From a virus, in IMG/VR virus record IMGVR_UViG_3300043434_000833, positions 7,708 to 71,707 of that record: DNA of 64,000 nucleotides; one strand, given 5' to 3'. The notes beneath the pieces are model-generated. The model had not been told where the DNA came from, did no database searches, and was given only the letters and a program-made list of their open reading frames with translations. This document shows positions 7,579 through 40,180 of this stretch, piece by piece. Both the position numbers and the translations under genes were made by a program. The first letter of the stretch is position 1. The number at the start of each line of letters is the position of its first letter.

Positions 7579-7859
7579 GAAATTTTAAATTTTTTCACGG
7601 TTTTGTTAGTGGATTAACAACAGTTCATTGGGTACCTCCTCATAATGAAATTGGCAACTATAATTTAGATGTTGAAGAGGAGTTGACAAATTTATTAAGT
7701 CAAGAAATTGCCACAGAAATTGATAATAACATTATAGAGGAATTAACACGAAGAATTAATGGTTTACGTCCATCAATATTTGATGGTGAAATTCAACGTT
7801 TTAATGATAATATTGATTATTTAAATCATTATATGGGTATTGGAGGACAAAGAGCGTGA
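7575..7859 (+). CDS. Small protein containing a gp23 major-capsid-like helix
   Basis: LDVEEELTNLLSQEIATEIDNNII resembles the spine-helix segment of T4-gp23-type capsid proteins. Confidence 0.5.
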   Translation: MRNFKFFHGFVSGLTTVHWVPPHNEIGNYNLDVEEELTNLLSQEIATEIDNNIIEELTRRINGLRPSIFDGEIQRFNDNIDYLNHYMGIGGQRA

Positions 7860-20624: not shown

Positions 20625-20655
20625 ATAATATATCAAAAAATATTTAAAAAATCAA
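20625..20655 (-). promoter_or_regulatory. -33/-7 type promoter
   Basis: TTG-N20-TATATTAT, 5 nt before ATG. Confidence 0.55.
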
Positions 20656-21368: not shown

Positions 21369-22024
21369 ATTATTTTTTTAGATTGTGATAATGAGTACAA
21401 ATAATGTGCAAAATTGAAGTGTCCATTAAATGAGAAATGTGTATCATTTATTGTCCCTTGTGTATGGTCTTTTATTGTTTGAAAAGACCTATATATATTA
21501 TCATCATCTTCTAAAGACCACATAAAGAAAAATTTAATTTTTTTATCTTTTTTAAATCTGTCTCTTATGTAATTAAAACGTTTTTTATGTCTATCTTTAT
21601 AAAATTGGTGATTAGAGAAATGGTATTGGAAATTAACAATTGATTCAATAATCTCATTATTTTCTTTTTCGGCATCACTACTTAATATCTTATCCGCACG
21701 TTCATACATCGATAATACGTTATGAACATTGTCACCTATTGGTACGTCGATTCTCCCAAAAAGTGTCATATTAATGATTACAATATCATTTTTATCAATA
21801 TCATCATAGTTGTCTAAGATACTATCAAAAATGTAATCATTTGATGCACCGTTTTTACCTAAATTTTTTACACTATAATTTAACAACTTACTTAAATGAT
21901 TTGGCCATATATCGTCACCTTCCTTTTTGAATTTTTGATAATCTTCACGTGTATTCGAAGGGCAATTATTATTACAACCGTGACCAAAAGTCATTGAATC
22001 CCCAAATGTCCAAAGTGTGTTCAT
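21365..22024 (-). CDS. SGNH/GDSL-like acyltransferase or esterase
   Basis: FGDSMTFG, NLGKNGASN, DTHFS. Confidence 0.75.
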   Translation of the reverse strand: MNTLWTFGDSMTFGHGCNNNCPSNTREDYQKFKKEGDDIWPNHLSKLLNYSVKNLGKNGASNDYIFDSILDNYDDIDKNDIVIINMTLFGRIDVPIGDNVHNVLSMYERADKILSSDAEKENNEIIESIVNFQYHFSNHQFYKDRHKKRFNYIRDRFKKDKKIKFFFMWSLEDDDNIYRSFQTIKDHTQGTINDTHFSFNGHFNFAHYLYSLSQSKKII

Positions 22025-22572
22025 TAAATAATGGTTTTTATTTTCTTTTCATTAAACTCCTTATTGTTAGTATGAATGTACATATCAAAAAGTGTTTGTT
22101 TTAAATCAATATTCAAATAATGACAAATTTCGATTAATTCTTCGCTAGGTGTGTCAGTGTATATATCCTCATAAAAAAAGATTTTTTTATCTTTAGTTAT
22201 TTCATCAAAAACACTATTCCAAGATTCTATATTTTTTTTTGCCACGACATCACTAACTTCTTTAGTTAAATCTGGTTGTTGAAAATCAGACATAGATTTT
22301 ATCGTTTCGTTAATGTTTCTTCGTTTAATATATATTACCTTATCAAAATAACCGATAATTCTTTTTGAATGCTCAAACATAGTTTCACCATTTTTAAATA
22401 ATAAATTATCAGTCAATACCGTTTTCACAACACATTTATCACCCCAAATGAAATCGATAGTTTTTTTAAATGGTTCATACGATGAATGGTAATTAGATGA
22501 GACCGATAAACGTATAAAATTAAATAAACTACTGGTTCCCGATCTCGGCATACCAAATATCAATATCTTCAT
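22024..22572 (-). CDS. Sulfotransferase-like protein
   Basis: GMPRSGTS 5'-PSB loop, EPF, IKRRN...S, YED. Confidence 0.7.
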   Translation of the reverse strand: MKILIFGMPRSGTSSLFNFIRLSVSSNYHSSYEPFKKTIDFIWGDKCVVKTVLTDNLLFKNGETMFEHSKRIIGYFDKVIYIKRRNINETIKSMSDFQQPDLTKEVSDVVAKKNIESWNSVFDEITKDKKIFFYEDIYTDTPSEELIEICHYLNIDLKQTLFDMYIHTNNKEFNEKKIKTII

Positions 22573-23270: not shown

Positions 23271-24517
23271 TATATGAGTGGTTGTTTTTCTGTTATTTCT
23301 TTTTTAAATCCCTTAATAACTATATCTAATAATGAATTATCATTCTCAATCATTTTAATTAATTTTAAATGTGCCAAATCTGACCAATTCTTACATAATT
23401 TGAAATTATTTTCAAAATCTTTCATAAATGTTTGTACAAAATTAGCAAACAATTTACCATTTGTTTTACATTTTAATGATTCACCGTAAAATGGATGTGG
23501 AGGTAAATCTAACATTTTTTGTAAGATTTGTAGTGGATACTCGTGTGTTGAGATAAATGGTATACCTGATAATATTAAAATAAATGTTTTTTCCGAAAGG
23601 TACTGTGAAGTAAACTGATATCTACTCCAAGACCAACTTTCACAAAGAATTTGCATCTTTGCCTTTGGTAATACTCTGAAAAACATATCCATATAACCTT
23701 TATGGTTATCTATATATGTTAAATCAGAAAAATCATTATTACCAACAACTGAATTTGTATTTATATGGTTTAACAAATTCGTATTTTCTAAATAATCTGG
23801 GTTCTTTAATGAATCACTTCTTTGTATTAAAATTTTATTATTCTTAATTTTATCTAATTCGATAGCAATTTCTACCCTATTTTTTTTATGATTCTTAAAA
23901 CTATACATTAAATCATAATCAAAATTTAGTTTATCGTAAATTTGTTTAAATTCATAAAACCATCTGATTCCAATAATTTCATTCCATTGAAACACCGTAT
24001 TAGTTAATGAATAGTATAAATTAGAGTGCTTTGTTTCGATGTAATCATTTAAAAATATGTTGTCGGTCACAACATAATGATTACCTAAATCATTTAATAA
24101 GTTTTCAATTTCCAACCACTTATCATTTTGATTGAAGGTATCGTTAGTTTGTAAAATCTTTTCCGTTCTAAAATACGTTATTATCCATTTTTGATTTACA
24201 GGAACGTATTTTAATAAATTATTATAAATGGTTAAGATTTGTTGAGTTTCTCTTTCCATATAATGATTATCTCTTTCTATGTGTCCAATTTTAGGGTCTT
24301 CTTGACCATAAAAAAGTGCCGTAAAATAATCTAATAAATGAAAACCGTCATTCTCAAAACTGATTTCTTGTTTAAAAATAAATTCTATATTTGTGTTTTT
24401 GTATTTACAAAATACACTACCTACTTTATCGGTGATAAAAAATCGTCTCTCAGTTGTGTTATGAGCAATTTTATAAAAAATAGATTTATTATAGTAATGA
24501 TGGATATAAAATTTCAC
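23270..24517 (-). CDS. Putative GT10-like glycosyltransferase (divergent paralogue)
   Basis: QILCES...YLSEKTF...GIPFI motif shared with five other ORFs here. Confidence 0.5.
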   Translation of the reverse strand: MKFYIHHYYNKSIFYKIAHNTTERRFFITDKVGSVFCKYKNTNIEFIFKQEISFENDGFHLLDYFTALFYGQEDPKIGHIERDNHYMERETQQILTIYNNLLKYVPVNQKWIITYFRTEKILQTNDTFNQNDKWLEIENLLNDLGNHYVVTDNIFLNDYIETKHSNLYYSLTNTVFQWNEIIGIRWFYEFKQIYDKLNFDYDLMYSFKNHKKNRVEIAIELDKIKNNKILIQRSDSLKNPDYLENTNLLNHINTNSVVGNNDFSDLTYIDNHKGYMDMFFRVLPKAKMQILCESWSWSRYQFTSQYLSEKTFILILSGIPFISTHEYPLQILQKMLDLPPHPFYGESLKCKTNGKLFANFVQTFMKDFENNFKLCKNWSDLAHLKLIKMIENDNSLLDIVIKGFKKEITEKQPLI

Positions 24518-25036
24518 CTATATTATTTTTTTAACATATTTGTTTCTGTCACCCTTTCTCAAACGACTTTCATCATTTGGATTGTATAAATCTTCATAAT
24601 ATGTTATAGGAATATCTAATTCATTTGATAAAGTGTTCAATATCTCATTCCATTTAATTATGTTATTATTACATAACTCATCAATCGGTGTTGGTTCCCA
24701 TAAATAAGGGTCATTCGATGTAAATCCGTTTTTTCGATTGTACACCGAGTATGCGTGACTTTCAGCACAAGCTTTTAAATCTTTTCTACTTAATAATATA
24801 ATTTCATCAAATAATTTTGAAAATTTAATTACCCAATCAATGTAGTTATCGCAATTTTCAGGTTTTTGTACATCAACAATTGTTTTTAAAACAATGTTAT
24901 CCATATTATCCTTATATGTAACTCGATTGGTTCCATCGAAAGGTTCAAATAAGGGTCTTAAATTTTTGGAATTTGCAATTGAATGTAATAAAGATGTTGA
25001 TCCAGTTCTTGGTAACGAAATGATTAATATTCTCAT
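24518..25036 (-). CDS. Sulfotransferase-like protein
   Basis: SLPRTGSTS, FEPF, LLSRKD...S, YEDL. Confidence 0.72.
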   Translation of the reverse strand: MRILIISLPRTGSTSLLHSIANSKNLRPLFEPFDGTNRVTYKDNMDNIVLKTIVDVQKPENCDNYIDWVIKFSKLFDEIILLSRKDLKACAESHAYSVYNRKNGFTSNDPYLWEPTPIDELCNNNIIKWNEILNTLSNELDIPITYYEDLYNPNDESRLRKGDRNKYVKKII

Positions 25037-25602
25037 AGTAAAGTATTGTTAACTTTTAGTTTCGGATAATTAAAATCAGTCTCCGTCATCCAAATATTTA
25101 AAGCAAATCTATTTCCCTTGGTCACCGGTAACACTCCGTGATAAGTTTGTGAACCATTAAATGATATTAAATCACCCAATTTAAGGTTAAATGTTTCTAT
25201 ACTATCTAACGTTTCAAAATGAAATGATGGGTTTTTATCTTTACATAAAGCAAATTGACCTCCTTCATAACCATCCGATAAAACAATAACAGTTGTTAGT
25301 TCACTTGTTTTATCTTTATGTAAACTAAGATAGCGACCATTGTAGTAAGACGTTAAACTAATATTAAAATTTTTTAATTTAAAATCTCCGTAATTGAACC
25401 ATAATTTAAATTCATTACTTGTATATTTCTCAGTTAATCTGTTAATTATTTCTTGTTTAAAGGAGTCATCATAAATGCGTCTACAATCCCAAGATTCTGA
25501 TGGGTTATATGAAAAGGGTTCTCCGTATTCTAAACAAAAATCAATAATTGATTTAGACTCATTTTTGTCACAAAACCCACTATTAATCGAATACTCAATC
25601 AT
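25033..25602 (-). CDS. 2OG-Fe(II) oxygenase (prolyl-hydroxylase-like)
   Basis: HKD, YEGG, HGVLPV.KG.R facial triad and Arg. Confidence 0.85.
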   Translation of the reverse strand: MIEYSINSGFCDKNESKSIIDFCLEYGEPFSYNPSESWDCRRIYDDSFKQEIINRLTEKYTSNEFKLWFNYGDFKLKNFNISLTSYYNGRYLSLHKDKTSELTTVIVLSDGYEGGQFALCKDKNPSFHFETLDSIETFNLKLGDLISFNGSQTYHGVLPVTKGNRFALNIWMTETDFNYPKLKVNNTLL

Positions 25603-25633
25603 AAAAATTTAATTTTAATACTGTTGTAACTAA

Positions 25634-26368
25634 CTATATGATTGACTTAGTTCTTTTGACCGAACCATCAATATACTTATCAACGAATTCAACTAATTCA
25701 GGTGTTCGTGTTACGGCACAATAATCTAATTTAGTTTTATTTTTGTACATTAACTTAAATTCAATATTTAATTTTTTTGACATATATTCTTCAAGTTCTG
25801 TTAATTTATCAAAACTAAATTGTTTGACATTCACTTTGTCATTTGTTATCCATTGATATTGTGAAACAAAACTAAAAATATGTAATTCATACTGCTCGAT
25901 GAATTCTTCGTCTATTGGGTGTTCTTTTGATATCTCTAATTTATCAAGTAATTTAATAAGTAATGACCTTCTTGTTTTTCGTGAATTGTAAGCCATACTA
26001 AATTCCTGATAATTATCTTTTATAAAACTTATCACAAAATCATTTCCGATATTTTTTATTTTTTTACTTAACTCATCACTAATTGAATGAGTTAATAACT
26101 CAATAAAATATTTCCAAGCCGATATGAACCTATCAGTAGAATCCCTAATGATACTTATATATTCAAAATTTGTACCAAATCTATCTACAATTTGATTTAT
26201 AGTTGAATGGAGGTGCTTTTGTGGATTTTTACTACCTAACTTTATAGAATTTTCCCAAATTTTACTTGGGTATTTTAAATCTAAACCATAATTAATACAA
26301 GTATCCTCAACTGACCAAGAGGCGTTTTTTGGTATTGGTATGAATACCACTTTATCATTAATAATCAT
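25634..26368 (-). CDS. Sulfotransferase family 2
   Basis: FIPIPKNAS, IIRD..DRFISAW. Confidence 0.8.
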   Translation of the reverse strand: MIINDKVVFIPIPKNASWSVEDTCINYGLDLKYPSKIWENSIKLGSKNPQKHLHSTINQIVDRFGTNFEYISIIRDSTDRFISAWKYFIELLTHSISDELSKKIKNIGNDFVISFIKDNYQEFSMAYNSRKTRRSLLIKLLDKLEISKEHPIDEEFIEQYELHIFSFVSQYQWITNDKVNVKQFSFDKLTELEEYMSKKLNIEFKLMYKNKTKLDYCAVTRTPELVEFVDKYIDGSVKRTKSII

Positions 26369-26378
26369 TTATTTTTTT

Positions 26379-26495
26379 TTATTGTGTCACATCCGCATAA
26401 ATAAGTGTTGCCACTTCTTGCATTATGCTGGCAACATTAGTATTAGTTGTTGAATCGGTTAATACGATTTCACTTAAAATTATTTTCGGTTTCAT
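26379..26495 (-). CDS. Small 38-aa ORF downstream of Hint-fusion gene
   Basis: Not in ORF track; MKPKIILSEIVLTDSTTNTNVASIMQEVATLIYADVTQ fills the gap. Confidence 0.55.
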   Translation of the reverse strand: MKPKIILSEIVLTDSTTNTNVASIMQEVATLIYADVTQ

Positions 26496-26519
26496 ATTAT
26501 ATTATGTTATATTTAAAAT

Positions 26520-28049
26520 TTATACTTTACCTCCTTGATCACAGAAACTACAAGCACTACAATACCAAGTGGCACACATATAAGATGCACACCACGACGC
26601 ACAAATACCGTTGTGTTGGACAAACGCCAAACCTAATGTCTCATCTGCCATAAGTAAGAAGATGTCATTTGTTTCCACGTTTAAATCGTATATAGTACGA
26701 GTAATATAAATAACGTCTAAGTCAACAATTTTTGATTTGGTTAATGTATTGTTCACATAATCAAAAAATACTATAGAATCGTTTATTCTAAATCTATTGG
26801 TGTATGCAAATGTTGTTTCTAAAGTATCATATTCTTCAATCATCATTGCACTTCCTGGTAAATCTTCATAAACTATACCATTTTCCAAAGTAACTCTAAT
26901 CATCAACGATTCTTTTACTTGACTACCTAAGTCAATAACCGTTGACGACCCTACTGAAAATGATGTTAAATCAGCAGATAAGGTTCCTGAATTCACATCA
27001 TTAACATAAAGAATTTCTCCCGTTTCAGATGTTTCATTTTCCGGAACCCACGTTAAACCAATCGTTTTAACGGTGTCATTTACCAAAATTTGATTTGGGT
27101 ACTTGAATGTTCCGTCAGAAAAAAGAATAGGTGTGTCGTCGTCTAAGATATATCCAGGACCCATTCTTGTGGTTGGGGATTTACTCATCCATAATGGTCT
27201 GGCGTTTTGGTTCATTTTACCATTAGAATCATATGTTGTTTCCCAACTATTTGATTTAACAGGTGATGTCATTATATATGACCCTAAATGTAAACAATTA
27301 AGGTTACCACCATATAAAATGTCTAAACTTCTTATTACCCCCATTTTTTCATTAGCAATATTATCTGGATGAGTATGGTATTCTTCCATATATTCAGACT
27401 CACTTAATGAACTTTTTAAAGTCTGTAATGATTCTAAAGATGTAATTTTATAAAATTTCGGATAAGCAACATAATTGGTATTTGGAAATCTAGTTTTAAC
27501 TATATAGTTTGGTGCATTACCATCTGTGGTGTGAAGTGCGTTTAATTGGTCTATATTCAAATCCGGTGTAGTATTAGAATTATAATACACGTTAGGTGAA
27601 TATTCTTCATTTTGGATTAATTTGTGAAAATTAACCTTATCTTTTGTATATTCTTCATCAACGACAGCGGTTGTGTCATAAGAAGTTCTAATTATCAAAA
27701 TTCCGTCCCCATCTTCAACATATGGTACCGTAACTGAGTTTTTAGCAACTTCATAATGTGTGAACGTACCGTTAATTTCGGACATTATAGTCGACATCTT
27801 ATCTTTTAAGCTAATATTTACGGTAACAGTATCAAATACGTTATCTAATTCACTACTAAGAAAATTACCGTCTGTCGATATAAAATGTAGGTTCGTTATT
27901 GAATTATCCAATAAAAATTGTTTAAACGATACCCAATCTAAATCTGGCACTATTGAGTTATGGACATCAACGTTCGTGTTAGTCTCAATTATTCGTAAAT
28001 TACCGTCAGAATCCTTTAAGAAGTCCGTTCCAAGTATGAGTGCTTTCAT
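26520..28049 (-). CDS. Circularly permuted ATP-grasp-like domain + Hint domain + C-terminal six-Cys peptide
   Basis: GTDF..D.DG...IETNTN, YIVK..P, YMEEY; Hint block A ILDDDTPILFSDG...ILVNDTV, block F IYDLNV, terminal HN, then GICASWCASYMCATWYCSACSFCDQGGKV. Confidence 0.7.
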   Translation of the reverse strand: MKALILGTDFLKDSDGNLRIIETNTNVDVHNSIVPDLDWVSFKQFLLDNSITNLHFISTDGNFLSSELDNVFDTVTVNISLKDKMSTIMSEINGTFTHYEVAKNSVTVPYVEDGDGILIIRTSYDTTAVVDEEYTKDKVNFHKLIQNEEYSPNVYYNSNTTPDLNIDQLNALHTTDGNAPNYIVKTRFPNTNYVAYPKFYKITSLESLQTLKSSLSESEYMEEYHTHPDNIANEKMGVIRSLDILYGGNLNCLHLGSYIMTSPVKSNSWETTYDSNGKMNQNARPLWMSKSPTTRMGPGYILDDDTPILFSDGTFKYPNQILVNDTVKTIGLTWVPENETSETGEILYVNDVNSGTLSADLTSFSVGSSTVIDLGSQVKESLMIRVTLENGIVYEDLPGSAMMIEEYDTLETTFAYTNRFRINDSIVFFDYVNNTLTKSKIVDLDVIYITRTIYDLNVETNDIFLLMADETLGLAFVQHNGICASWCASYMCATWYCSACSFCDQGGKV

Positions 28050-28070
28050 ATTATTATTTTTTCTTTTTAT

Positions 28071-28078
28071 TATAAATA
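28071..28078 (-). promoter_or_regulatory. TATTTATA putative late promoter
   Basis: 21 nt upstream of ATG 28049, same spacing as at tail-fibre gene. Confidence 0.5.
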
Positions 28079-28088
28079 TAGATATTCT

Positions 28089-28730
28089 CTAAATTAGACT
28101 ATTTATTTTTTTCGCATTTTCAAACCCAACATTTGCGGCAATTACTACCCTATTTTTAGTTGAGTTTGGTGATTTATTGGGTGAATGTGGTAAATACCCT
28201 TTCATAACCAATAAATCCCCTTCTTGTGGTAAATAGTAATATCGTTGATTATCACTACCTTCAACTATTAAAGTACCTTCATTATCTTTTAAATTATCCG
28301 GCATTTGAACGTAATAAACAAACGTATATGTTGGGTAAAACGATTCTATTGATTTTTGTAAATCGATATGATTATGTAATGTGACAATATCATCCTTTCT
28401 AAAATTTTCTTGTTTTGGTTTTCCCTTTTTAACCACGTTAACCCACGAATTTACATTAATTCTATTAAATGGTGATTCATCCTCACATCTTAATTTAAAA
28501 CAAACCTCCATACCAAATTTAATTATTTCTTCTATGAAGTTATTTGGTTTCATTTCAGTTTGGAAATCAAAACTAGACCAATCATCCATATATGTGTAAT
28601 TATCTTTAGGTGAATATGGTGCAGATTTTAGAAAAATGTCAACATCATTCAAAACATTTTTTAATAATACATCGGATTCTGTTTTTGTTTTATATATGAT
28701 AACATCCTCCTCAAAAATAATTTTTTCCAT
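28089..28730 (-). CDS. Putative 2OG-Fe(II) oxygenase (TIGR02466-like)
   Basis: WVN, HNH, FVYYVQMP, EGDLL...LPH, RVVIAAN. Confidence 0.75.
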   Translation of the reverse strand: MEKIIFEEDVIIYKTKTESDVLLKNVLNDVDIFLKSAPYSPKDNYTYMDDWSSFDFQTEMKPNNFIEEIIKFGMEVCFKLRCEDESPFNRINVNSWVNVVKKGKPKQENFRKDDIVTLHNHIDLQKSIESFYPTYTFVYYVQMPDNLKDNEGTLIVEGSDNQRYYYLPQEGDLLVMKGYLPHSPNKSPNSTKNRVVIAANVGFENAKKINSLI

Positions 28731-28734
28731 ATTA

Positions 28735-29019
28735 TTATATTATACTCTTTTTTTTAATTTTTAAATGTTTCATATAATCCTGTTCTATAAAATTCCACTT
28801 ACCTAATGGGCAAGTACCATATTGATCTGTGAATATTTTTTTATTAATTGGACATCCACAGGGTCCACAATAATGTGACCACTCTTTATTATGAATAACT
28901 TCCTTTCTAAATTCACAATTAGAACAAATATCAATTCTCTTTTTAGCCAAATTTAATTCAACATCATTTGGGTTAAATGATGTTATCCAAGAATTGATTA
29001 TTTCTATTGGGTTGAACAT
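28735..29019 (-). CDS. Small Cys-rich metal-binding protein (DUF6171-like)
   Basis: R..ICSNC...CGPCGC....K...CPLGKW. Confidence 0.65.
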   Translation of the reverse strand: MFNPIEIINSWITSFNPNDVELNLAKKRIDICSNCEFRKEVIHNKEWSHYCGPCGCPINKKIFTDQYGTCPLGKWNFIEQDYMKHLKIKKKSII

Positions 29020-29026
29020 TGTGATA

Positions 29027-29236
29027 TCATTTTTTAAGTCCGAATTTAATCCATTTATACCATATTCTTTCGTGTAGGTAATATTGTATTGGTTTATAAA
29101 TTAATTCCGCAACCCCAAAAGCCGCACCAACCTTTACTGAACCACTTATTAACCACATCAATAAAAAACCAATTACCGTACTAACAATACGGTATGAAAT
29201 GGTTTTTGCTATGTGTCTTTTTCTTTCAACTATCAT
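29027..29236 (-). CDS. DUF2061 membrane protein
   Basis: RHIAKTISYRI...YYLHERIW. Confidence 0.85.
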   Translation of the reverse strand: MIVERKRHIAKTISYRIVSTVIGFLLMWLISGSVKVGAAFGVAELIYKPIQYYLHERIWYKWIKFGLKK

Positions 29237-29844
29237 AATATTTTTTTAGGTTCATTCGCATAAAAATCAACACCGTTAAATTTACTATGATACATAACAT
29301 ATTGATTATTTTGGAACATTCTATGATTTTTCCACGAATCGGGCCAAGTTTCCACTTCCTCATCGGTAAACGATATAATTTCAGAATTTAATCTTATTTC
29401 CGGTCGATAATATGCATAAAATGAAAGTACGGTACCTTCTTTACAATTTGATTTAACTTTATCCATAAAGTAAGGTAAATTACCGTCCGTATCAGTGTCA
29501 AATAAAATACCATCAAATTTTCTATTTTCTAAAGGTAATACATTATACCAATCACCAAGTATCACTTCAACATTACGTTTATCTTTAGCCCATTCTAATG
29601 CCCTTTCATATTGTATTGGATGAATCTCAATTATAGTGTGAGATGTGACATTTGGATTACTTTGAATGAAATCGGCGGAAATGTGCATTCCAAATCCTAA
29701 TTCTAAAATATCTCCACCGTTTTGTGTACTGATTTCCGCCTGTCTTTTCATAATCTTAGTTTCACAAACGTGCATTATGTGATGATTATTTTCGGGATTA
29801 AAAATATAATCATCGGTAATAATAATTTTTTCGTTACCTTTCAT
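29233..29844 (-). CDS. SAM methyltransferase, GAMT/RMT2-like
   Basis: M...E..IM, ILELGFGMHIS, HTIIEIHP, GDW, FDGILFDT; start moved to ATG 29844. Confidence 0.8.
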   Translation of the reverse strand: MKGNEKIIITDDYIFNPENNHHIMHVCETKIMKRQAEISTQNGGDILELGFGMHISADFIQSNPNVTSHTIIEIHPIQYERALEWAKDKRNVEVILGDWYNVLPLENRKFDGILFDTDTDGNLPYFMDKVKSNCKEGTVLSFYAYYRPEIRLNSEIISFTDEEVETWPDSWKNHRMFQNNQYVMYHSKFNGVDFYANEPKKIL

Positions 29845-29854
29845 TTTTTTGTTT

Positions 29855-30241
29855 TTATTTATTTTCTTCAGTAAAATATTCGATGGTATCTCCGTTTGAA
29901 TCGATATAACCATTGCGAATGTCCGTACCACTTATTTTTGCAATTTCACTTGGTGGTTCGTGATAGATAACATCATAACCAACACCTCTACCATAGTTAA
30001 TACTTTCAATATCGGGAATAATTGATATCTGTACTCTATGTGAATTATCTTTAAAGAATTGTTCCTCAGATAAATCCATCATTACTTGTTGTGCGGTTTT
30101 TGGATTATTTTCGTCAGTTGGTACATTTCTAATTGCTACCCATACGTCTTTCCCCTTCTCTAATTGTTGATTGATAAGCCACTCGTGACCTTTATGCCAA
30201 TTTTGCCAACGTCCTACGTATAACGCGTACTTTTTACTCAT
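29855..30241 (-). CDS. Small HxGH nucleotidyltransferase (cytidyltransferase-like), candidate sulfate adenylyltransferase
   Basis: GRWQNWHKGH, ISGTDIR; directly downstream of cysC. Confidence 0.75.
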   Translation of the reverse strand: MSKKYALYVGRWQNWHKGHEWLINQQLEKGKDVWVAIRNVPTDENNPKTAQQVMMDLSEEQFFKDNSHRVQISIIPDIESINYGRGVGYDVIYHEPPSEIAKISGTDIRNGYIDSNGDTIEYFTEENK

Positions 30242-30244
30242 TTT

Positions 30245-30679
30245 TTAAATTTTTAATTTTCTTCTTAGATTTAAGAATGTATTATATTCACTACAATCTG
30301 TAGTATCACAATCAACAAAAAAGGTTAATGGTTCCTCATAATTTACGTGAAATTGTTCTCTACCTCTTATATTTATGGTATGAACATAAATTTCCACTAA
30401 ATCATCACCCATCTCAGTTTTAAATTGTTCTCTTTGATCCCTATATGGTGAAACTAATGAAACAATAACCGTGTACCCTTTGTGATGTAAAAATTTTGCC
30501 AGTATCTGAGCCTTTTCAATATTTTTACGTCTACCCTCTTCAGAGTAGTCCTTATTCACAAAAATTTCACGGATGTCGTCACCATCTACCACCATAGATT
30601 TATTTGGGAAACTTGCTTGTATCCAAGACGCTAACGTTGTTTTACCTGCTCCGGGTTGTCCGGTTAACCAATATATCAT
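30245..30679 (-). CDS. cysC: Adenylyl-sulfate kinase
   Basis: WLTGQPGAGKTT, DGDDIR, DYSEEGR..N, VSPY...R, YEEP; start moved to ATG 30679. Confidence 0.92.
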   Translation of the reverse strand: MIYWLTGQPGAGKTTLASWIQASFPNKSMVVDGDDIREIFVNKDYSEEGRRKNIEKAQILAKFLHHKGYTVIVSLVSPYRDQREQFKTEMGDDLVEIYVHTINIRGREQFHVNYEEPLTFFVDCDTTDCSEYNTFLNLRRKLKI

Positions 30680-30685
30680 ATACCA

Positions 30686-30716
30686 ATAATATAGTCTTTT
30701 TTTTTTAAAAACCAAA
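30686..30716 (-). promoter_or_regulatory. -33/-7 type promoter
   Basis: TTTG-N19-TATATTAT, 6 nt before ATG. Confidence 0.55.
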
Positions 30717-30833
30717 TTAATGGTTATAAATAAATGGATCTCTTTTACGTAATTCTTCTAATTTCTTTTTAAACTCTTTTTTTCTTTTACGGTCCGCAAA
30801 ATACTTTTTAATCCAATTAATTAACTTCATCAT
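30717..30833 (-). CDS. Small basic 38-aa protein ending DPFIY
   Basis: Not in ORF track; MMKLINWIKKYFADRKRKKEFKKKLEELRKRDPFIYNH, starts 1 nt after carbamoyltransferase stop. Confidence 0.7.
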   Translation of the reverse strand: MMKLINWIKKYFADRKRKKEFKKKLEELRKRDPFIYNH

Positions 30834-30834
30834 A

Positions 30835-32505
30835 TTATTTTTGTTTATATATTACATAATTACCCATAACTAATAAATCCATATCAGTGTCAAAAAACGT
30901 ATCCACCGCATCTTTAGGTGTCAATACCATAGTTTTATCTTTAACGTTGAACGAAGTATTCAATAGTATTGGGTATCCACTTATTTGTTCAAATTCTCTT
31001 AATAATTCATATATTGCGGTGTGTTTATACACAGTCTGTACTCGAGCGGAACCATCTACGTGAGTCACCGCTTTCAATATGTCACGATATTCCTTCTTAA
31101 CTTTCACAACTTGATTCATATATGGTACATCGTCTGTCATTTCAAAGAAATCGTGTTGTCTTTCTTTAATCACCATCGGTGCGAAGGGTCTAAAACCTTC
31201 TCTTTTCTTAATTACTTTGTTAATTCTATCTTTCATACCATCTAACGTTGGGTTAGCTAAAATTGACCTATTACCTAACGCTCTCGAACCAAATTCAATA
31301 TGCCCGTGAAACCATCCCACAACATTACCCTCGTTAAGTTTCTTAGCCACATAATTTCTTAGTCCTTTTTCTGTATTAAATTTTTTGTAATGTGTACCTT
31401 TTATCGCTCTTTGGATGTCGTCATAAAGATACTGCGGTCCCAAAAATGGATTTTTTGTGATTTTACTTTTAATTTTTCTCTCTTGTATCAAATAGTGAAC
31501 TACCGCACCAATTGCCGACCCCGCATCTGACGGTGCCGGTGGTATCCATAGACTATTAAAATCCGAATCGGTGGTTATTTTACCATTTGCAGTTCCATTA
31601 TAGGCACAACCTCCACTTAAACAAAGGTTATCACTCTTTTTAATCAATGATAATGTTTTTAAAATATCAAACAAAACTTCCTCATAAACTTTCTGAACCG
31701 CAGCTGCCAAATCTTCGTGAACAGTAGTTAATGGTTCTTCAGGTAATCTTTGATCCACCCCCAACAATTCGGGTAATTTTTCGTTAAACATAATTTTATC
31801 CGACCTATCCCAACAAAAGACATCCATATTACATTTCAAACCACCATTTTTAAATGTTATTAACTCTCTAACTTTATCGATATAATTTTCCGGTTTACCA
31901 TATGACGCCAAACCCATTACTTTATATTCACCCTCATTTGGTCTAAAACCTAAAAACGAGGTCATAGCGGAATAATATAGTCCAAGTGAATGTGGATACT
32001 TTGCTATTGTATGATATTTTATACCATTATAATCCGCAAAACCATACGACATAGTGTCTTTTTCACCAACACCGTCTACGGATAAACACGTAGACTCCTC
32101 AAAATTAGATGTGTAAAATGAATAATATAAATGTGATTCGTGATGTGTCGAATAAAATACGTTAGGTGACAATTTTTTAAGTTTGTCGTCAACTTCTTTT
32201 GCTACGTTTCTAATTTTTAAATATGACCTTAATGAATATAATGGATTCTTAAACATTTGTGGTTTAATATTCTCCATTACCCTTTCATATTTTAACTTAG
32301 GATTCTCATAATAACAAACCGCCTGTAGATTCTTATCTGTTATTTTATAGTGTTTATAGATATACTCTAATACCTTCTCTGGAAAAGAACTATCGTGTTT
32401 GATACCTGTAAATTTTTCTTCTTCACAAGCGAAGATTAATTGGTTATCTCTAAAAAGACAAACTGATGAATCGTGATAAAATGCTGATATTCCTATTATA
32501 TACAT
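30835..32505 (-). CDS. Carbamoyltransferase (CmcH/NodU family)
   Basis: GISAFYHDSS, HHESH, DGVGE, GEYKVMGLA, GGCAYN, DAG, EFGSRALGNRS, RPFAP, LNTSFN. Confidence 0.96.
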   Translation of the reverse strand: MYIIGISAFYHDSSVCLFRDNQLIFACEEEKFTGIKHDSSFPEKVLEYIYKHYKITDKNLQAVCYYENPKLKYERVMENIKPQMFKNPLYSLRSYLKIRNVAKEVDDKLKKLSPNVFYSTHHESHLYYSFYTSNFEESTCLSVDGVGEKDTMSYGFADYNGIKYHTIAKYPHSLGLYYSAMTSFLGFRPNEGEYKVMGLASYGKPENYIDKVRELITFKNGGLKCNMDVFCWDRSDKIMFNEKLPELLGVDQRLPEEPLTTVHEDLAAAVQKVYEEVLFDILKTLSLIKKSDNLCLSGGCAYNGTANGKITTDSDFNSLWIPPAPSDAGSAIGAVVHYLIQERKIKSKITKNPFLGPQYLYDDIQRAIKGTHYKKFNTEKGLRNYVAKKLNEGNVVGWFHGHIEFGSRALGNRSILANPTLDGMKDRINKVIKKREGFRPFAPMVIKERQHDFFEMTDDVPYMNQVVKVKKEYRDILKAVTHVDGSARVQTVYKHTAIYELLREFEQISGYPILLNTSFNVKDKTMVLTPKDAVDTFFDTDMDLLVMGNYVIYKQK

Positions 32506-32508
32506 TCT

Positions 32509-35215: not shown

Positions 35216-36489
35216 TATATTAAGGATTCAAAAAATAGATAATCTTCGTCAACAATCTTTAATATATTGATGACTCTTTGTTTATTGTCAATAAACCTTT
35301 CTTTATTCTTTTTATAAAAATCGATTATGATTTGCTTATTTTCTGATAATCTTTTTATTTCGTTCACAAACATTTCAATACGTTTTCTTTGGTTTGGTTC
35401 GTCGTCGTAACTATGGTCTATAACATCGTCATAAAAATCCAAACCATATTTTAATTTAACCATTTTAATGTGATTATGAGTGGATAATATTAATGGGATT
35501 TGATAATAATAAAACGGTTTAAATGTTTTTTCCGAAATATGAATGTTATTGTTCACATCTAAAAACATCGACTCGGTTATGATGTTAATGTATGTGTTTT
35601 CATAATTTTTTGGGTATTCTGGTGTGTGCATCCATATTGGAAAATCTTTATTGTTGACTTCACTAAATTCATTAAACCAATCTTTCTCAATTTCGTAATC
35701 ACTTTTCTTAAAATGTAAATTATAAAAATATAACATTTCGTCATTTAACATATCAATATCCTCTTTAGAAAATAACGGATAGTAATAACTTTCAAGTGGT
35801 TTACAGTCATAACCAGGTACTAATGACCAATTAATATCACTCAATAAATTATATTTTTTTAGGAAACACAATAATCCGTATCTATGTATCTTTGGTGACT
35901 TATTGAATAACTGAAAAAATTTACCTTGTTTATTTGGTTCAAAATCACAACCTCCTACATTCTCTAACACTTTGGTTGAGGAGTGTGGTACAAATCGTAT
36001 CGTATGTACATTTATCTGTGATTTGTATTTTTCTTTGTATTCGGGTAATTTATAATTGTTATTAACTATATAAATTTGCTTTTCATCAATACCCTTCAAC
36101 CTAACAAAGTCAAATATCTTTTTGAAACTATCTTCACAATCCGGTTCGTGTTCGGTTAAAAACATAACAAAGAAATTTGAACATTTTAATAAACATTCAA
36201 CTACGTTATTATTAAAAGGTGTAATTCCGTTTTCAAAAAAATCACCAATCATCTCACCTCCGTGATTTATAATGTAATAATACTTTTGAGTTGGGTTATC
36301 GTACACTTCAGACATAGAGCAAGTTCTCTGTCTAAATTTGTCAGTGTATGAAGTGTCATCAATAAAATGTTTGATTAAATTCATTGAGTCACAAACACGT
36401 CTGTTTGGATAACGAAATGTAATATTTGGTATTGGTTCATCAGTGTACTCATCAAAATTATCATACACTAAATTTAAAACTTTCTGCAT
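35215..36489 (-). CDS. Putative GT10-like glycosyltransferase
   Basis: NKSPKIHR, YINIITES, ISEKTFKPF, IDHSYD. Confidence 0.55.
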   Translation of the reverse strand: MQKVLNLVYDNFDEYTDEPIPNITFRYPNRRVCDSMNLIKHFIDDTSYTDKFRQRTCSMSEVYDNPTQKYYYIINHGGEMIGDFFENGITPFNNNVVECLLKCSNFFVMFLTEHEPDCEDSFKKIFDFVRLKGIDEKQIYIVNNNYKLPEYKEKYKSQINVHTIRFVPHSSTKVLENVGGCDFEPNKQGKFFQLFNKSPKIHRYGLLCFLKKYNLLSDINWSLVPGYDCKPLESYYYPLFSKEDIDMLNDEMLYFYNLHFKKSDYEIEKDWFNEFSEVNNKDFPIWMHTPEYPKNYENTYINIITESMFLDVNNNIHISEKTFKPFYYYQIPLILSTHNHIKMVKLKYGLDFYDDVIDHSYDDEPNQRKRIEMFVNEIKRLSENKQIIIDFYKKNKERFIDNKQRVINILKIVDEDYLFFESLI

Positions 36490-38915
36490 TATATCAGGTT
36501 TTTGAAAAAGTCATAATCTTTATTGATAAAATCTAAAAGATTAATTATTTTTTGTTTATTTTTTTCAAATCTGTCTTGGTTATCTCTATAGAACTTAATA
36601 AAATTTTCTTTATTATTATTTATTCTTTCAATTTCGTCCGCAATCATCGATAGACGTTTTTTATGGTCAGGTTCGTCGTCATATCCGTGGTTTATAATAT
36701 CGTCGAAGAAATCTAACCCATATAATTCTTTCATTTTTTTAATATGATGTTGGGATGCCACCATAATCGGAAATTGATAGTAAAAAAATGGTTTAAATGA
36801 CTTTTCTGATATGTGGATAGTGTTCTTTTGTCTATCAAAAGCCGATTCCGTTGTAATGTTTACATATGAATTGACATAAGATTCAAAACTTTCAATATGT
36901 GTTAATTTTTGTGACAATTCATCTTTGTTACTTTCATTGTACGTGTATATATCTCTTTCATAATCACTCAACTTATAGGTTAGGTTTTGTATAAAATTAG
37001 AATCGATTTTGTCATCATCTAATACATTTTTTAAAAAAATTTCGTCAGTTTTTTCATTTCCCGTTGGGACAAATGACCAATTAATATCATTCAATAAATT
37101 TTTATTGTTCAACAAGTTTAATATCCCAATCCTATGTGGTTTTAATGATTTATTAAATGTTAAAAAGAATTTACCATATTTGTTAGGTTCGAAATAACAA
37201 CCGCCAGCATCTTTTAAATCTCTAATTTTACAATATAATAAAAAGTTTATTTTATAAACGTTTACGTCACTTTTAAATTTTAATTTGTACTCATCTAATT
37301 TAGAATTATTATTAATGCAATATACTTTAGATAATGAGATGTTATTTAATTCAAAATATTTTAAAATTTTAACAAACTCATCTTCATTGGTTGGTTCGTG
37401 CTCAGTGATTAATAAAATATAAAAGTTAGGACAAGTTCTTAACATTTCTTTTATATCAGTATTAATCAATTCATTCTCTGACGATTTTAAATTAAAATCA
37501 TCATCAACATAGTCAACAATAAACGTTGTTGGTTCGTGATAGTTTATTATATAATAATAATTCTCATTCGGTTTTCTTTTAACCTCATCTAATCTACATT
37601 TTTTTGTGATAAATTCATCTCTCTCTGTTTGTACAATACAATGATTTAATAGACTGATTCCGTCCGATATTAAAAATTCATTGTTAGCGAAGTATGTTTT
37701 ACCGTTAGATATTGGTGTGTTTGTCGAATCGTCCCATTCGTTATAAACTAAGTTAAAAGTTTTTTTCTTTTTACCGTAATGTATGGTATTTTCTTTATGT
37801 CTTTCTCTCCAAGGGTCTAATGTTATACTGCCTTCCGGAAAATCTAAAATATTAAAATTATATCTATGTCCTAAAAGAAAAACCGACGGTTCGTCCATTA
37901 CATCGTATCTAATTTTTTTACCAAATTCATTCTCTATATAATAACCAACTAAACGTGAGAATGAACCATCATATAACTCAACTCCCAATTTATAACTCTC
38001 ACCCATAATAACAATTGGTAGGTGGTAATCAATCGACATATCAACCAATTTACTTGCAATATTTTTTGCTTGGATTTCTCTTGATTTCATTATCGAATCG
38101 AACAAATCATATCCTAAATCCAATTCATTTACCATATATCTTAGTGCGATGTTATCTCTTGGGTGACAAGGTCCTCCGTCACCCATACCCGCCTTCATAT
38201 ACGCTTTACCAGTAATTCTATAGTCACTTCTTTCTAAAGCACCGGTTACTACGTCAGTATTAATGTTACCATTTTTTTCCGCCACATCTTGAATCATATT
38301 CACTAATGACAATTTAGCGGAAATGAATGTATTATAAAATATTTTTATCGATTCAGCCTCATCCCACGTCCCGACTTCAATTCTAACACCCTTATTCACA
38401 AATGTCTTATAGAACTCAATAAGTTTTTCTGCATCACCATTTGTTTTACCATCTTCAGTGCCAATTATAATCATTTCGGGATTAATCAAATCATTTTTAA
38501 CGGTACCCATAGCAATAAGGTATGGGTTATATATGAAACGATAATTTTTAACCAACGGTATAAACTCTCTTCTTGTTGTACCAGGTAACACTGTAGATAT
38601 TAAAACAACTAATTGGTTTTTTGTTGTGTATTGATTGATTTCGGTTAAGACTTCTTTAACTATCGAGTAATCAAAGTCTTTTGGTTCTAAATGTGATGTT
38701 GGTTTACTACCGTCATATTCAGGGTGATGAGGTGTCGGTACTGCTACGAATATCATATCTCTATCTCTACATACTTCCTGAATTGAGTTTGTCATCCTAA
38801 ATCTACATTGTGTAATTGTTCTAACGTCATAACCAACAATGTCGTGACCGTTATCAAACATAACTTCAGCAACGTCTCTACCCAATTTACCTATACCAAT
38901 AAATCCTATTTTCAT
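36489..38915 (-). CDS. UDP-glucose/GDP-mannose dehydrogenase fused to GT10-like domain
   Basis: IGIGKLG, AVPTP, ST..PGT, YNP, E.IK..YN, GGPCHPRD; C-terminal half NLVY...NITTES..ISEKSFKPF. Confidence 0.88.
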   Translation of the reverse strand: MKIGFIGIGKLGRDVAEVMFDNGHDIVGYDVRTITQCRFRMTNSIQEVCRDRDMIFVAVPTPHHPEYDGSKPTSHLEPKDFDYSIVKEVLTEINQYTTKNQLVVLISTVLPGTTRREFIPLVKNYRFIYNPYLIAMGTVKNDLINPEMIIIGTEDGKTNGDAEKLIEFYKTFVNKGVRIEVGTWDEAESIKIFYNTFISAKLSLVNMIQDVAEKNGNINTDVVTGALERSDYRITGKAYMKAGMGDGGPCHPRDNIALRYMVNELDLGYDLFDSIMKSREIQAKNIASKLVDMSIDYHLPIVIMGESYKLGVELYDGSFSRLVGYYIENEFGKKIRYDVMDEPSVFLLGHRYNFNILDFPEGSITLDPWRERHKENTIHYGKKKKTFNLVYNEWDDSTNTPISNGKTYFANNEFLISDGISLLNHCIVQTERDEFITKKCRLDEVKRKPNENYYYIINYHEPTTFIVDYVDDDFNLKSSENELINTDIKEMLRTCPNFYILLITEHEPTNEDEFVKILKYFELNNISLSKVYCINNNSKLDEYKLKFKSDVNVYKINFLLYCKIRDLKDAGGCYFEPNKYGKFFLTFNKSLKPHRIGILNLLNNKNLLNDINWSFVPTGNEKTDEIFLKNVLDDDKIDSNFIQNLTYKLSDYERDIYTYNESNKDELSQKLTHIESFESYVNSYVNITTESAFDRQKNTIHISEKSFKPFFYYQFPIMVASQHHIKKMKELYGLDFFDDIINHGYDDEPDHKKRLSMIADEIERINNNKENFIKFYRDNQDRFEKNKQKIINLLDFINKDYDFFKNLI

Positions 38916-40180
38916 TTTACTAATTCCTCCCATATATCGTCAAATATTTTGCTCAAATCTAAATTAATTCCCTCATCATATTTTTCTTTAAATAATTTAT
39001 TATAATGAGTTTGATTAAATTCACACACCTCTTTCATTTGATTCCTAATTTGTGTCAATTCATCTATTGTTTTACCTTCAAATTTTTTTAACTCATTTAC
39101 CACCATAAGTGATCTTTTATTCCTATCTGGTTCGTTATCATAACTTTCATCAATCCACTTATCAAAAGTTTTATAACCCATTGATTTTAAATATTTTAAT
39201 GAATTTTGATTACCGTATAAAATGAATGGGTGTCCGACCATTATCGGTTTCCAAATTTTTTCAGAAAAGAACAAAGTATCGTCATCAACCAATGATTCAG
39301 ATAATAATGAAATAAATGTTCTTTCGTAGTCTTCCTTAGTTATGTTACACGCTAAATTGAAGTCTAAATCATATCGTTGGTCAATGATGAATGGAGCGTT
39401 ATCCTTTAAATAATTATAGTGTTCAATTTTACATTCAGGGGTCGGTGGATAAATTAAACTATTTAAACTGATTGTACCCTTATGGAATAAATTTAATTCC
39501 AATAAATCCATCAGTAGTGTGATTCTTTGTGGTCTCGGATTCCTATTATATGAGAGAAAAAGAAATTTATTGTCAATTGGTTTGAAATCGACCACCTCCA
39601 CTTCGTCATATGTATTCCAAGGTTCAAAACAATGGATTGGTTTACCCTTAAAACCTAACCCTTTTTGTTTAATAATGTCATCTATTAAAAAATTACCACA
39701 TATATAATATATTGAGTCCGTGGGTAAATTACTATCTTTTCTCCATTTTTCAATAATCTCTAAATCGTAATTTCCTTTTGAACCTGAATATCCTTCATAT
39801 AAAAACAACAATAGAATTTTACTTTTACCATTTCTAACATCATCAAGATACTTTGGTGAAATGCACGTAAAACCAATTTCAATGTTATCGGCGAAAAAAC
39901 TATATGAATAAACATTAATCACATATAGATGATTATCATTTCCAATATCTGACATTTGTTTATATTCTATTTTTTTAGAATAATGTGGTGTCACAATTCC
40001 CCTAAACATCTGATTATCAAACATTTCCCCCTGTTCACTAAACACATTCCAATCACCCCACATTAGTGGTCTACTCAGTCTTTTTAATTCATTAATGTAC
40101 CAAGTTTTAGACGAGCCATTTGGTCTATAGTAATCAATGATACTGTCCCAATCTTCTAAACTACATATGATTTTATCCAT
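38912..40180 (-). CDS. Putative GT10-like glycosyltransferase
   Basis: YNRNPRPQR, ISLLSES, FSEKIWKP, GYKTFD..IDESYD. Confidence 0.55.
   Translation of the reverse strand: MDKIICSLEDWDSIIDYYRPNGSSKTWYINELKRLSRPLMWGDWNVFSEQGEMFDNQMFRGIVTPHYSKKIEYKQMSDIGNDNHLYVINVYSYSFFADNIEIGFTCISPKYLDDVRNGKSKILLLFLYEGYSGSKGNYDLEIIEKWRKDSNLPTDSIYYICGNFLIDDIIKQKGLGFKGKPIHCFEPWNTYDEVEVVDFKPIDNKFLFLSYNRNPRPQRITLLMDLLELNLFHKGTISLNSLIYPPTPECKIEHYNYLKDNAPFIIDQRYDLDFNLACNITKEDYERTFISLLSESLVDDDTLFFSEKIWKPIMVGHPFILYGNQNSLKYLKSMGYKTFDKWIDESYDNEPDRNKRSLMVVNELKKFEGKTIDELTQIRNQMKEVCEFNQTHYNKLFKEKYDEGINLDLSKIFDDIWEELVK

Follow-up and report, generated by a model that had tools for sequence, protein, structure and literature searches.

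What does a viral protein do that carries, in a single chain, an ATP-grasp-like domain, an intein-like Hint domain and a short tail filled with cysteines? The question is raised by P0001, the product of an open reading frame (ORF) on the minus strand of the 64,000-nucleotide stretch of DNA analysed here (the window), which covers positions 7,708 to 71,707 of IMG/VR record IMGVR_UViG_3300043434_000833, a 71.7-kb viral contig estimated to be 22% complete. The carrier is a large marine phage. An earlier note on this DNA, made from its letters alone, had described a frame ending in a six-Cys tail (26523-26609), and the translation bears this out, giving 509 residues, the C-terminal end of P0001 being ...FVQHN followed by GICASWCASYMCATWYCSACSFCDQGGKV. 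The reading favoured here, to which about an even chance is given, is that P0001 is a self-processing precursor-plus-enzyme of large T4-like phages, in which a ligase, a cleavage-type Hint domain and a peptide destined for release are combined. Its parts are as follows (pLDDT, predicted local distance difference test).

26520..28049, minus strand: the whole ORF of P0001, 509 residues plus the stop codon (26520-26522), 57.2 kDa
27168..28049, minus strand: circularly permuted ATP-grasp domain of the type of glutathionylspermidine synthetase (GspS), YgiC and eukaryotic glutathione synthetase (GS), residues 1-294, from fold matches and conserved residues
27978..28025, minus strand: D9...E22-x-N24, a putative Mg2+/phosphate-ligand motif, in 130 of 130 homologues
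27156..27167, minus strand: flexible inter-domain linker, residues 295-298, with pLDDT below 50 and gappy alignment columns
26610..27155, minus strand: Hint domain without N-terminal nucleophile or block-B TxxH, residues 299-480, from fold and profile matches
26610..26615, minus strand: His479-Asn480, the predicted Asn-cyclisation site with N480-G481 as scissile bond, proposed from conservation
26523..26609, minus strand: hypervariable six-Cys payload peptide, residues 481-509, 29 residues and 3.1 kDa if released, from translation

Conservation was counted in an alignment of 130 homologues, and the AlphaFold2 model of P0001 was built on the same alignment (mean pLDDT 91.6, predicted template modelling score 0.86); the model is weak only at the linker and the tail. 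In this model, residues 298-482 are matched by VIA-align to the NpuDnaB intein [4o1r, Z 15.7, 139 residues aligned, root-mean-square deviation (rmsd) 2.1], to the Hedgehog autoprocessing domain (1at0, Z 15.6) and to the BIL2 domain of Tetrahymena (6tmm, Z 15.3). Foldseek gives E 3.9e-8 for the same region, with a template modelling (TM) score of 0.77 on the target, and a search of PDB sequences with the family profile finds the KlbA intein (E 4.1e-8). The core Hints of two homologues, P0188 and P0252, match PT-HINT weakly (E 4.6e-4 and 3.4e-4). The family consensus contains a block-A-like stretch, 'DG..k....l..gd..Kti', and one like blocks F and G, 'y...vE..d.FL......i.HN'.

The Hint domain was supposed from the outset to lack both the Cys1 nucleophile and the TxxH motif while keeping its terminal His-Asn, and the homologues bear this out. 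The position equivalent to Cys1, residue 301, is Ile in P0001 and is never Cys among the 130 (His 33, Lys 25, Ile 23, Gly 9, Phe 7, Ser 7, Leu 5, Asn 4), and no alignment column between residues 295 and 478 has His or Cys in at least 30% of the sequences, hence no TxxH. What is conserved in this part of the protein is limited to structural Gly, Asp and Phe positions plus the last two residues, His479 being kept in 125 and Asn480 in 129 of the 130. The loss of Cys1 and TxxH together with the retention of His-Asn indicates that the Hint gave up the N-terminal thioester step and retained the C-terminal cutting part. Cleavage by cyclisation of a C-terminal Asn is the chemistry of inteins and BIL domains, and because this chemistry is established for inteins, BIL domains and pretoxin-HINT domains, P0001 is probably cleaved at Asn480. 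The Asn would cyclise to a succinimide and cut the N480-G481 bond, which corresponds to the C-terminal-cleavage half-reaction of those domains, and the cut would free the 29-residue, 3.1-kDa six-Cys peptide with a new alpha-amine.

The tail that would be freed holds six of the seven Cys of P0001 and differs in its evolution from the rest of the protein. Over 63 close homologues, pairwise identity averages 0.67 in the ATP-grasp domain, 0.62 in the Hint and 0.70 in the last 40 Hint residues, against 0.36 in the tail and 0.22 at its non-Cys positions, while the lowest 29-residue window of the core still reaches 0.43, so that the hypervariable, Cys-rich tail expected by the earlier note is found in the homologues. 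The same is seen over short distances: within six clusters of at least 90% identity, 308 differences in 24,812 sites separate the cores (0.012) and 107 in 1,613 the tails (0.066), a 5.3-fold excess of tail substitutions in which every Cys is unchanged. Among the 126 tails of up to 60 residues, 89 contain exactly six Cys, 14 seven and 17 eight. A repeated C-A-[ST]-aromatic unit had also been pointed out, and it is present in P0001 as CASW, CASY and CATW; it is not a family feature, relatives having CFSW, CAPW, CAVW, CYGW and others, and it is the Cys spacing, C-x3-C-x(3-9)-C-x(3-6)-C-x2-C-x2-C, that is conserved. The family in this respect resembles ribosomally synthesised and post-translationally modified peptide systems, in that a ribosomal precursor has a hypervariable core beside conserved processing functions. 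The fast evolution of the payload loops makes it most likely that the product, whether released or displayed, is engaged, outside the cytoplasm, in an interaction of the arms-race kind. A diversity-generating retroelement was considered as a source of the variation and rejected for this copy, since no second copy of the tail DNA was found within the 64-kb window. A C-terminal Lys was likewise set aside as a payload feature: Lys is among the last four residues of 61 of 95 tails and is subgroup-specific (36 of 44 in the QHN and 3 of 27 in the EHN subgroup), and K-rich gene ends are common in the AT-rich phage genome, which weakens it further.

The strongest comparative argument that this segment is cut out comes from relatives in which a second self-cleaving module, either a Peptidase_S74 autoprotease or another Hint, brackets it. 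Most family members, P0001 included, are of a tail-only form with a Cys-rich tail of 25-60 residues. In a second form a Cys-rich segment of about 30-110 residues is followed by Peptidase_S74, which Pfam finds after the core in eight of 53 long homologues; in other members, such as P0020, the S-D-x3-K and GVIAQEL motifs were recognised by eye only. The Cys-rich segment spans the distance from HN to the S-D-x3-K motif in all 13 S74-type sequences inspected, and S74 has been gained or lost at the same '...K|SD' junction between close relatives (locus L026 compared with the tail-only loci L017-L025). P0001 itself has no S74 and ends 29 residues past HN. In a third form, seen in 23 of the 53 long homologues, one to three canonical Hint domains (Cys1, TxxH and HN) follow the core, and in six of 14 such sequences inspected (P0123, P0125, P0130, P0133, P0136 and P0149) the Cys-rich segment fills the space from the first HN to Cys1 of the Hint that follows. 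P0230 is arranged differently, as core, Hint and Cys-rich tail, the payload following the second Hint, and P0249, P0211, P0236, P0238, P0245, P0266 and P0267 have two or three tandem canonical Hints with spacers of 0-5 residues such as 'KK'. A few members have very long C-terminal regions, with BACON domains in two (P0252 and P0256), and across the family the C-terminal modules range from 0 to more than 1200 residues. Scans of 44 and 53 proteins gave no Pfam family for the payload, the only domains on the payload side being S74, Hint and BACON.

The other half of the protein is the N-terminal domain (pLDDT 94.3 when residues 1-294 are modelled alone), for which the earlier note had proposed a circularly permuted ATP-grasp ligase from D...ExN, YIVK and EEY motifs. 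The motifs are present and conserved: D9, E22 and N24 stand in all 130 homologues, K185 of YIVK in 129, and the EEY of P0001 corresponds to a hinge consensus 'lqEy'. The permuted order is seen in the model as well, in that the top folds, YgiC, GspS and eukaryotic GS, align from residue 1. The best VIA-align match is YgiC (7uka, Z 9.4, 201 residues aligned, rmsd 4.0, model residues 1-291), followed by GspS (2io7, Z 9.0) and eukaryotic GS (Z 8.6-7.8), while the classical ATP-grasps ArgX, LysX, RimK, bacterial GshB and Ddl reach Z 5-6 only and align only from about residue 50. Foldseek gives E 2.6e-5 to 5oeu, and among the matches listed all 31 at E<=1e-3 belong to the GS/GspS/YgiC/YjfC group. 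These Z scores are moderate, a best VIA Z of 7-8 being possible by chance, and the domain is called ATP-grasp because of the consistency of the family, the first 22 VIA rows (Z 9.4 to 5.1) all being ATP-grasp enzymes, and because residues 1-291 are covered. Neither PF03738 (GSP_synth) nor PF03917 (GSH_synth_ATP) matches anywhere in the record even at E<=10, which together with the moderate Z argues for an ATP-grasp of permuted order that is not a member of either family. Hence the likeness to the GspS and GS families is confined to fold and permutation.

The E-x-N strand at the extreme N-terminus is the signature of the permutation, and D9 and E22-x-N24 are put forward as Mg2+/phosphate ligands. 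E22, N24 and K185 stand in motif contexts that look like those of ATP-grasps, their equivalence to residues of solved enzymes being by motif only; a profile match of residues 10-35 to residues 275-300 of biotin carboxylase is weak and non-significant (E 1.4). M1, D9, E22, N24, R121 and D131 are invariant, R240 is kept in 129 of 130, and T25, P109, D113, D125, A128, Y134, P180, N181, K185, P197, R240 and L250 are at least 90% conserved, which is the profile predicted for a working active site. Thus both of the folds that had been anticipated, ATP-grasp and Hint, are found in P0001, and the His-Asn pair is conserved in its homologues, so that neither the fold predictions nor the conservation of HN, which the earlier note had named as grounds for refutation, speak against its reading.

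This architecture occurs far beyond chance, as indicated by 122 homologues at E<=1e-3 in a word-index search and 243 clusters at 50% identity in an exhaustive search of 50%-identity representatives (E<=1e-3, 66 of them below 1e-30). All of the names given to family members in their sources are 'hypothetical protein'. The clusters nearest to P0001 in a language-model atlas are 96-100% viral, and the family appears, judged from such sequence collections, to be almost wholly viral. A scan of 185,579 prokaryote species genomes, made with two EHN-subgroup patterns only, gave one locus (L039, 38% identity over the full length); it is a 2,044-base contig in an archaeal metagenome-assembled genome bin, most likely a misplaced piece of viral DNA. 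Two records with relatives of about 38% identity contain a T4-type major capsid gene (PF07068, E about 6e-64), one of 310,691 bases (93% complete) and one of 245,393 bases, which identifies the carriers of the family as large T4-like phages. Searches of 50,697 deposited phage genomes by tblastn and megablast gave no match to the family, a query with the homologue P0081 found no viral locus, and Pfam has no family for P0001 at E<=1. The matches that Pfam, PHROGs and PDB-sequence searches of P0001 did return were to antibodies and exotoxins, at E>=0.008, and were taken as chance; a search of BFVD gave matches to the Hint domain only, the best full-length look-alike (A0A1C3NFC6, TM 0.26, rmsd 19.7) being unconvincing. 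One homologue, P0220 (298 residues), lacks the ATP-grasp domain: its N-terminus resembles a signal peptide, and the Hint and Cys-rich tail come next. This protein may be no more than a fragment, or else a cellular variant that is secreted.

How, then, might the ligase and the released peptide be connected? In the relatives with a second module, the C-terminus of the payload would also be trimmed, in some by the Peptidase_S74 autoprotease and in others by a canonical Cys1 Hint, which would leave a C-terminal thioester. The ATP-grasp domain, in turn, could spend ATP on an amide bond in the same pathway, by way of an acyl-phosphate that is attacked by an amine. It might acylate the new N-terminus of the payload, activate the C-terminal carboxylate of the payload for cyclisation, or link the payload with a different carboxylate, for example the C-terminus of a partner protein or a sugar acid. 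That the cis ligase acts on the payload at all is offered tentatively, with a chance clearly short of even.

A bolder form of the favoured reading, and an improbable one, is that P0001 is a natural machine for peptide or protein ligation in which the ATP-grasp domain takes the place of the intein half that forms the thioester, so that an acyl-phosphate is coupled to the alpha-amine unmasked at Asn480. This would yield either a six-Cys peptide closed head to tail, like a cyclotide, or a conjugate ligated in trans, and the candidates for the acyl-phosphate would be the C-terminus of the payload itself, that of a six-Cys partner protein encoded nearby, or a sugar acid. Relatives in which a Cys1 Hint follows would arrive at this product by way of a thioester, as a natural counterpart of the engineered two-intein systems.

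The genes around P0001 bear on these proposals and were compared with those of related loci, using the ORFs within five genes at 38 loci (the window plus 37 viral contigs, with members down to about 27% mutual identity). The neighbours in the window are the following.

28735..29019, minus strand: small six-Cys partner protein, 94 residues, CxxC...CxxCxC...C; 36 of 38 loci
28089..28730, minus strand: weakly 2-oxoglutarate (2OG)-Fe(II)-oxygenase-like protein, 213 residues, immediately upstream (PF13759, E 0.01, below cut-off); 20 of 38 loci
25634..26368, minus strand: Sulfotransfer_2-like protein, 244 residues, immediately downstream (PF03567, E 1.5e-4); 29 of 38 loci
25033..25602, minus strand: 2OG-Fe(II) oxygenase of the prolyl-hydroxylase type, 2OG-FeII_Oxy_3, 189 residues (PF13640, E 9.8e-10); 29 of 38 loci
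24518..25036, minus strand: conserved-neighbourhood protein without Pfam match, 172 residues, related by BLAST to the ORF at 22024-22572; 20 of 38 loci
22024..22572: sulfotransferase-like ORF with a weak Sulfotransfer_1 match (E 0.0016)
36489..38933: UDP-glucose/GDP-mannose dehydrogenase, within a glycan island

The partner protein is the most constant of these. Its homologues, of 72-108 residues with six invariant Cys, are found within three genes of the family gene in 36 of the 38 loci, at position -1 (17), +1 (13), -2 (5) or -3 (2), and the fact that it lies on either side and at varying positions shows that the linkage survives rearrangement. Weak matches to DUF6171 (PF19668) at E<=1 are given by 12 of 21 partner homologues (best 6e-5), the copy in the window at 28735-29019 not being one of them. 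The ORFs at 24518-25036 and 22024-22572 are linked by BLAST to the same ORFs of the related loci. Of the flanking oxygenases, sulfotransferases and methyltransferase that the earlier note had invoked, the 2OG oxygenase matches PF13640 (E 9.8e-10), several others fall below Pfam thresholds, and the 'methyltransferase' at 29233-29931 is a sub-threshold match (E 0.005). Under the favoured reading, the six-Cys protein could serve as partner, carrier or folding factor, and the neighbouring 2OG-oxygenase-like and sulfotransferase-like enzymes may act on the product, a role for which the conserved gene neighbourhood is the only ground.

Several observations weigh against the release of a payload that is then modified by its own ligase. 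The block-B TxxH is missing, and Asp (D462, in 84 of 130) stands at what we take, from a reading of the motif, to be the position of the block-F His of canonical inteins; Asn cyclisation could for these reasons be slow or absent. In the 191 of 267 sequences in which HN could be located by regular expression, Cys is at +1 in three only and mostly at +2 (77) or +3 (63), so that the canonical S-to-N acyl shift is not set up and the Hint domain, which also has no position-1 nucleophile, is not an intein. The residues most often at +1 are Gly (40), Ala (34), Pro (32) and Tyr (23), and Pro at +1, in 32 of the 191, may affect cleavage. The tail is of low confidence in the AlphaFold2 model (pLDDT 55-59). 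Eight of the 14 Hint-type relatives have only 0-8 residues between HN and the next Cys1 and hence hardly any payload; seven of these spacers have 0-7 residues without Cys, and that of P0242 has eight residues with two Cys. Seven members with only 3-7 residues after the HN position, six of them Cys-free and one with a single Cys, keep the ATP-grasp residues, so that the ligase has a role for which a Cys-rich payload is not needed. The N-domain sequence matches no ATP-grasp model in Pfam. Conservation of the neighbourhood may be partly plain synteny among related phages and, since the gene lies in a glycan island with a UDP-glucose dehydrogenase, the ATP-grasp domain could equally amidate a sugar acid.

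The last of these points leads to the alternative that survives best, which is nevertheless considered unlikely, namely that the ATP-grasp domain serves the glycan island, amidating the carboxylate of a sugar acid (for example a uronic acid made by way of UDP-glucose dehydrogenase) or making a small metabolite, while Hint and payload are an accessory that is released or retained independently and possibly supplies the amine joined to the glycan. ATP-grasp amidoligases of Campylobacter act on capsular glucuronate. Seen more widely, the window is a very large island of glycan biosynthesis, and the P0001 gene lies within a run of glycosyltransferases, epimerases/dehydratases, the dehydrogenase at 36489-38933, a carbamoyltransferase and an adenosine 5'-phosphosulfate (APS) kinase, the island also including a collagen+S74 fibre gene. 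The ATP-grasp residues are, moreover, invariant even in members without a Cys-rich payload, and the nearest solved folds are those of small-molecule ligases, GspS, GS and Cp1B, the last being an enzyme of the E-64 pathway (PMC12568646). A role confined to glycans, however, leaves unexplained the constant fusion of the ligase to a cleavage-type Hint and a hypervariable payload. It also does not account for the tightest linkage being to the small six-Cys protein and not to any sugar enzyme: in the five-gene flanks of the 37 related loci, where the commoner clusters were annotated, the recurring neighbours are the six-Cys protein and 2OG-oxygenase-like, sulfotransferase-like and GDSL-like genes.

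It is also possible to suppose, with a rather small probability, that there is no self-cleavage and that the Hint is a structural or adaptor domain. The Cys tail would then stay attached as a metal-binding or disulfide knob, acting as a virion-associated or surface-displayed variable adhesin or as a regulatory Zn or Fe-S module. The losses of block B and of the N-terminal nucleophile are in keeping with this, the CxxCxxC and Cx3C spacings could bind metal, the other payloads include BACON domains (P0252 and P0256) and S74 chaperones of the kind typical of phage fibres and surface proteins, and there is a collagen+S74 fibre gene in the window. A purely structural Hint, on the other hand, would have no reason to keep His and Asn in 125 and 129 of 130 sequences at its last two residues while the other catalytic positions drift. 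Moreover, His479 is preferentially lost where the payload is lost, namely in three of seven members with a tail of up to 12 residues versus two of the 123 others (Fisher p = 9e-4, a value that ignores relatedness), and the tail is not docked on the core in the model (pLDDT 55-59).

The weakest alternative is a polymorphic-toxin- or effector-like cassette, in which the constant N-terminal part delivers or anchors, the Hint frees a variable C-terminal effector and the ATP-grasp domain is an independent effector enzyme; the HINT domains of bacterial polymorphic toxins are proposed to release the C-terminal toxin domain (PMC3417536), the Hint of this family lies directly upstream of C-terminal modules of very different kinds and sizes (0 to more than 1200 residues) and PT-HINT has weak matches in the core Hints of P0188 and P0252, but no payload matches a toxin family in Pfam scans, neither an immunity-gene pattern nor domains for secretion or filaments are seen, and the P0001 family is viral, not cellular, which makes this very improbable.

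Under the favoured reading, a self-processing precursor-plus-enzyme, P0001 combines features of several known systems without coinciding with any of them. BIL and pretoxin-HINT proteins share with it a Hint that ends in His-Asn right upstream of a hypervariable module, which it is thought to release by autoproteolysis, and the BIL domains 2lwy and 6tmm give structural Z scores of 15.2-15.3 to the P0001 Hint. P0001 differs from them in that its Hint has no N-terminal Cys/Ser or TxxH, is fused to an ATP-grasp domain and is encoded by a phage, and in that its family carries mostly Cys-rich peptides of 25-110 residues, in contrast to the toxin domains behind pretoxin-HINT. Engineered two-intein (TWIN-type) and SICLOPPS constructs are used to cyclise peptides, and the Hint-type relatives have the same order of parts, a C-cleaving Hint without Cys1, a peptide with Cys near its new N-terminus and a Cys1 Hint. 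Unlike these constructs the relatives are natural, P0001 lacks a second Hint, the +1 residue is seldom Cys, and cyclisation is only a proposal.

On the ligase side, GspS, YgiC, YjfC and eukaryotic GS have the fold and the order of elements in common with P0001, including the E-x-N strand that precedes the ATP-binding Lys, whereas the N-domain of P0001 is of about 294 residues compared with 370-600 in the matched GspS, YgiC and GS chains, and the TM-scores are 0.36-0.42. In graspetide (microviridin-type) pathways an ATP-grasp ligase is likewise paired with a ribosomal, variable peptide. There, the ligase is of the classical order and is encoded by a gene separate from that of the leader-bearing precursor, whereas in P0001 enzyme and peptide are in one chain with the Hint between them. 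The Peptidase_S74 chaperone autoprotease of phage fibres, which in known cases follows trimeric fibre or spike domains, stands behind the Cys-rich segment in some relatives with its S-D-x3-K motif intact; these differ from fibres in that S74 follows an enzyme-Hint-peptide chain. LysW is a small zinc-ribbon carrier protein paired with the ATP-grasp ligase LysX, and the P0001 locus resembles this pair in the genetic coupling of an ATP-grasp ligase to a small zinc-ribbon-like protein with at least four Cys, LysX and ArgX being among the fold matches of the N-domain (Z 5.7-5.8). The partner is unrelated to LysW in sequence, is weakly DUF6171-like and has a C-terminus that is basic and hydrophobic, not acidic.

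Each part of P0001 thus has known counterparts, and that a Hint can release polymorphic C-terminal modules is in itself a known principle. A search of full-text literature, with most subscription journals outside its reach, nowhere found the ATP-grasp/Hint/Cys-peptide architecture described, nor its alternation with S74 or a second Hint, nor the conserved six-Cys partner, which suggests that the combination of a permuted ATP-grasp, a nucleophile-less cleavage-type Hint and a hypervariable Cys peptide is apparently new. If the favoured reading is true, phages carry a large family (243 clusters at 50% identity), wholly unannotated, of peptide factories, each of them one chain that comprises an enzyme, a domain that cuts itself and a rapidly evolving peptide of the disulfide or metal type. 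This would be a new route to ribosomal peptide natural products, with a natural 'cleavage-only' Hint as a built-in leader protease, possibly a new ATP-driven chemistry for ligation or cyclisation in protein engineering, and, for large marine T4-like phages, which are abundant, an arms-race interface that has gone unrecognised. Even if only the most cautious reading holds, a widespread 'hypothetical protein' gains folds, testable catalytic residues and a conserved partner gene.

Other genes of the glycan island have unusual features of their own. The product of the fibre gene at 13365-15035 (minus strand) has 556 residues; it contains collagen triple-helix repeats (PF01391, E 1.2e-12) and ends in a Peptidase_S74 chaperone (E 6.3e-17), and this collagen-like fibre is a possible substrate for the many nearby 2OG oxygenases and glycosyltransferases. 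A sulfation toolkit is spread over 24518-26368, 22024-22572 and 29855-30715 (minus strand) and includes, besides two or more sulfotransferase-like genes, one for an APS kinase (PF01583, E 1.7e-19), with an adjacent 128-residue protein that is weakly cytidylyltransferase-like. The ORF at 17884-20619 (minus strand) encodes 911 residues, with a glycosyltransferase of the GT1 family (residues 177-298), a middle part and a FkbM-type methyltransferase (750-890). Two large proteins encoded at 51140-52597 and 53371-55470 (both minus strand), about 25 kb from the P0001 gene, have weak radical-SAM matches (E 1.2e-4 and 2.8e-7), and those at 55467-56900 and 56897-58306 (both minus strand) combine galactosyltransferase family-7 domains of eukaryote type (PF13733, PF02709) with a Laminin_G_3/concanavalin-like domain, a combination unusual in a phage. 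Finally, many consecutive and unrelated genes at 20652-36489 and 48889-51140 (minus strand) end in the same motif, K/N-x-[S/T/K]-[I/L]-[I/L], with KKII, KTII, KTLI, KSII, NSLI, ESLI, NKLI and KKLI as examples. In these genes the stop codon shares bases with the start codon that follows (TAATG or ATGA) and orthologues in other phages end alike, and the shared gene end could be a translational-coupling signal at the nucleotide level or a common C-terminal peptide motif.

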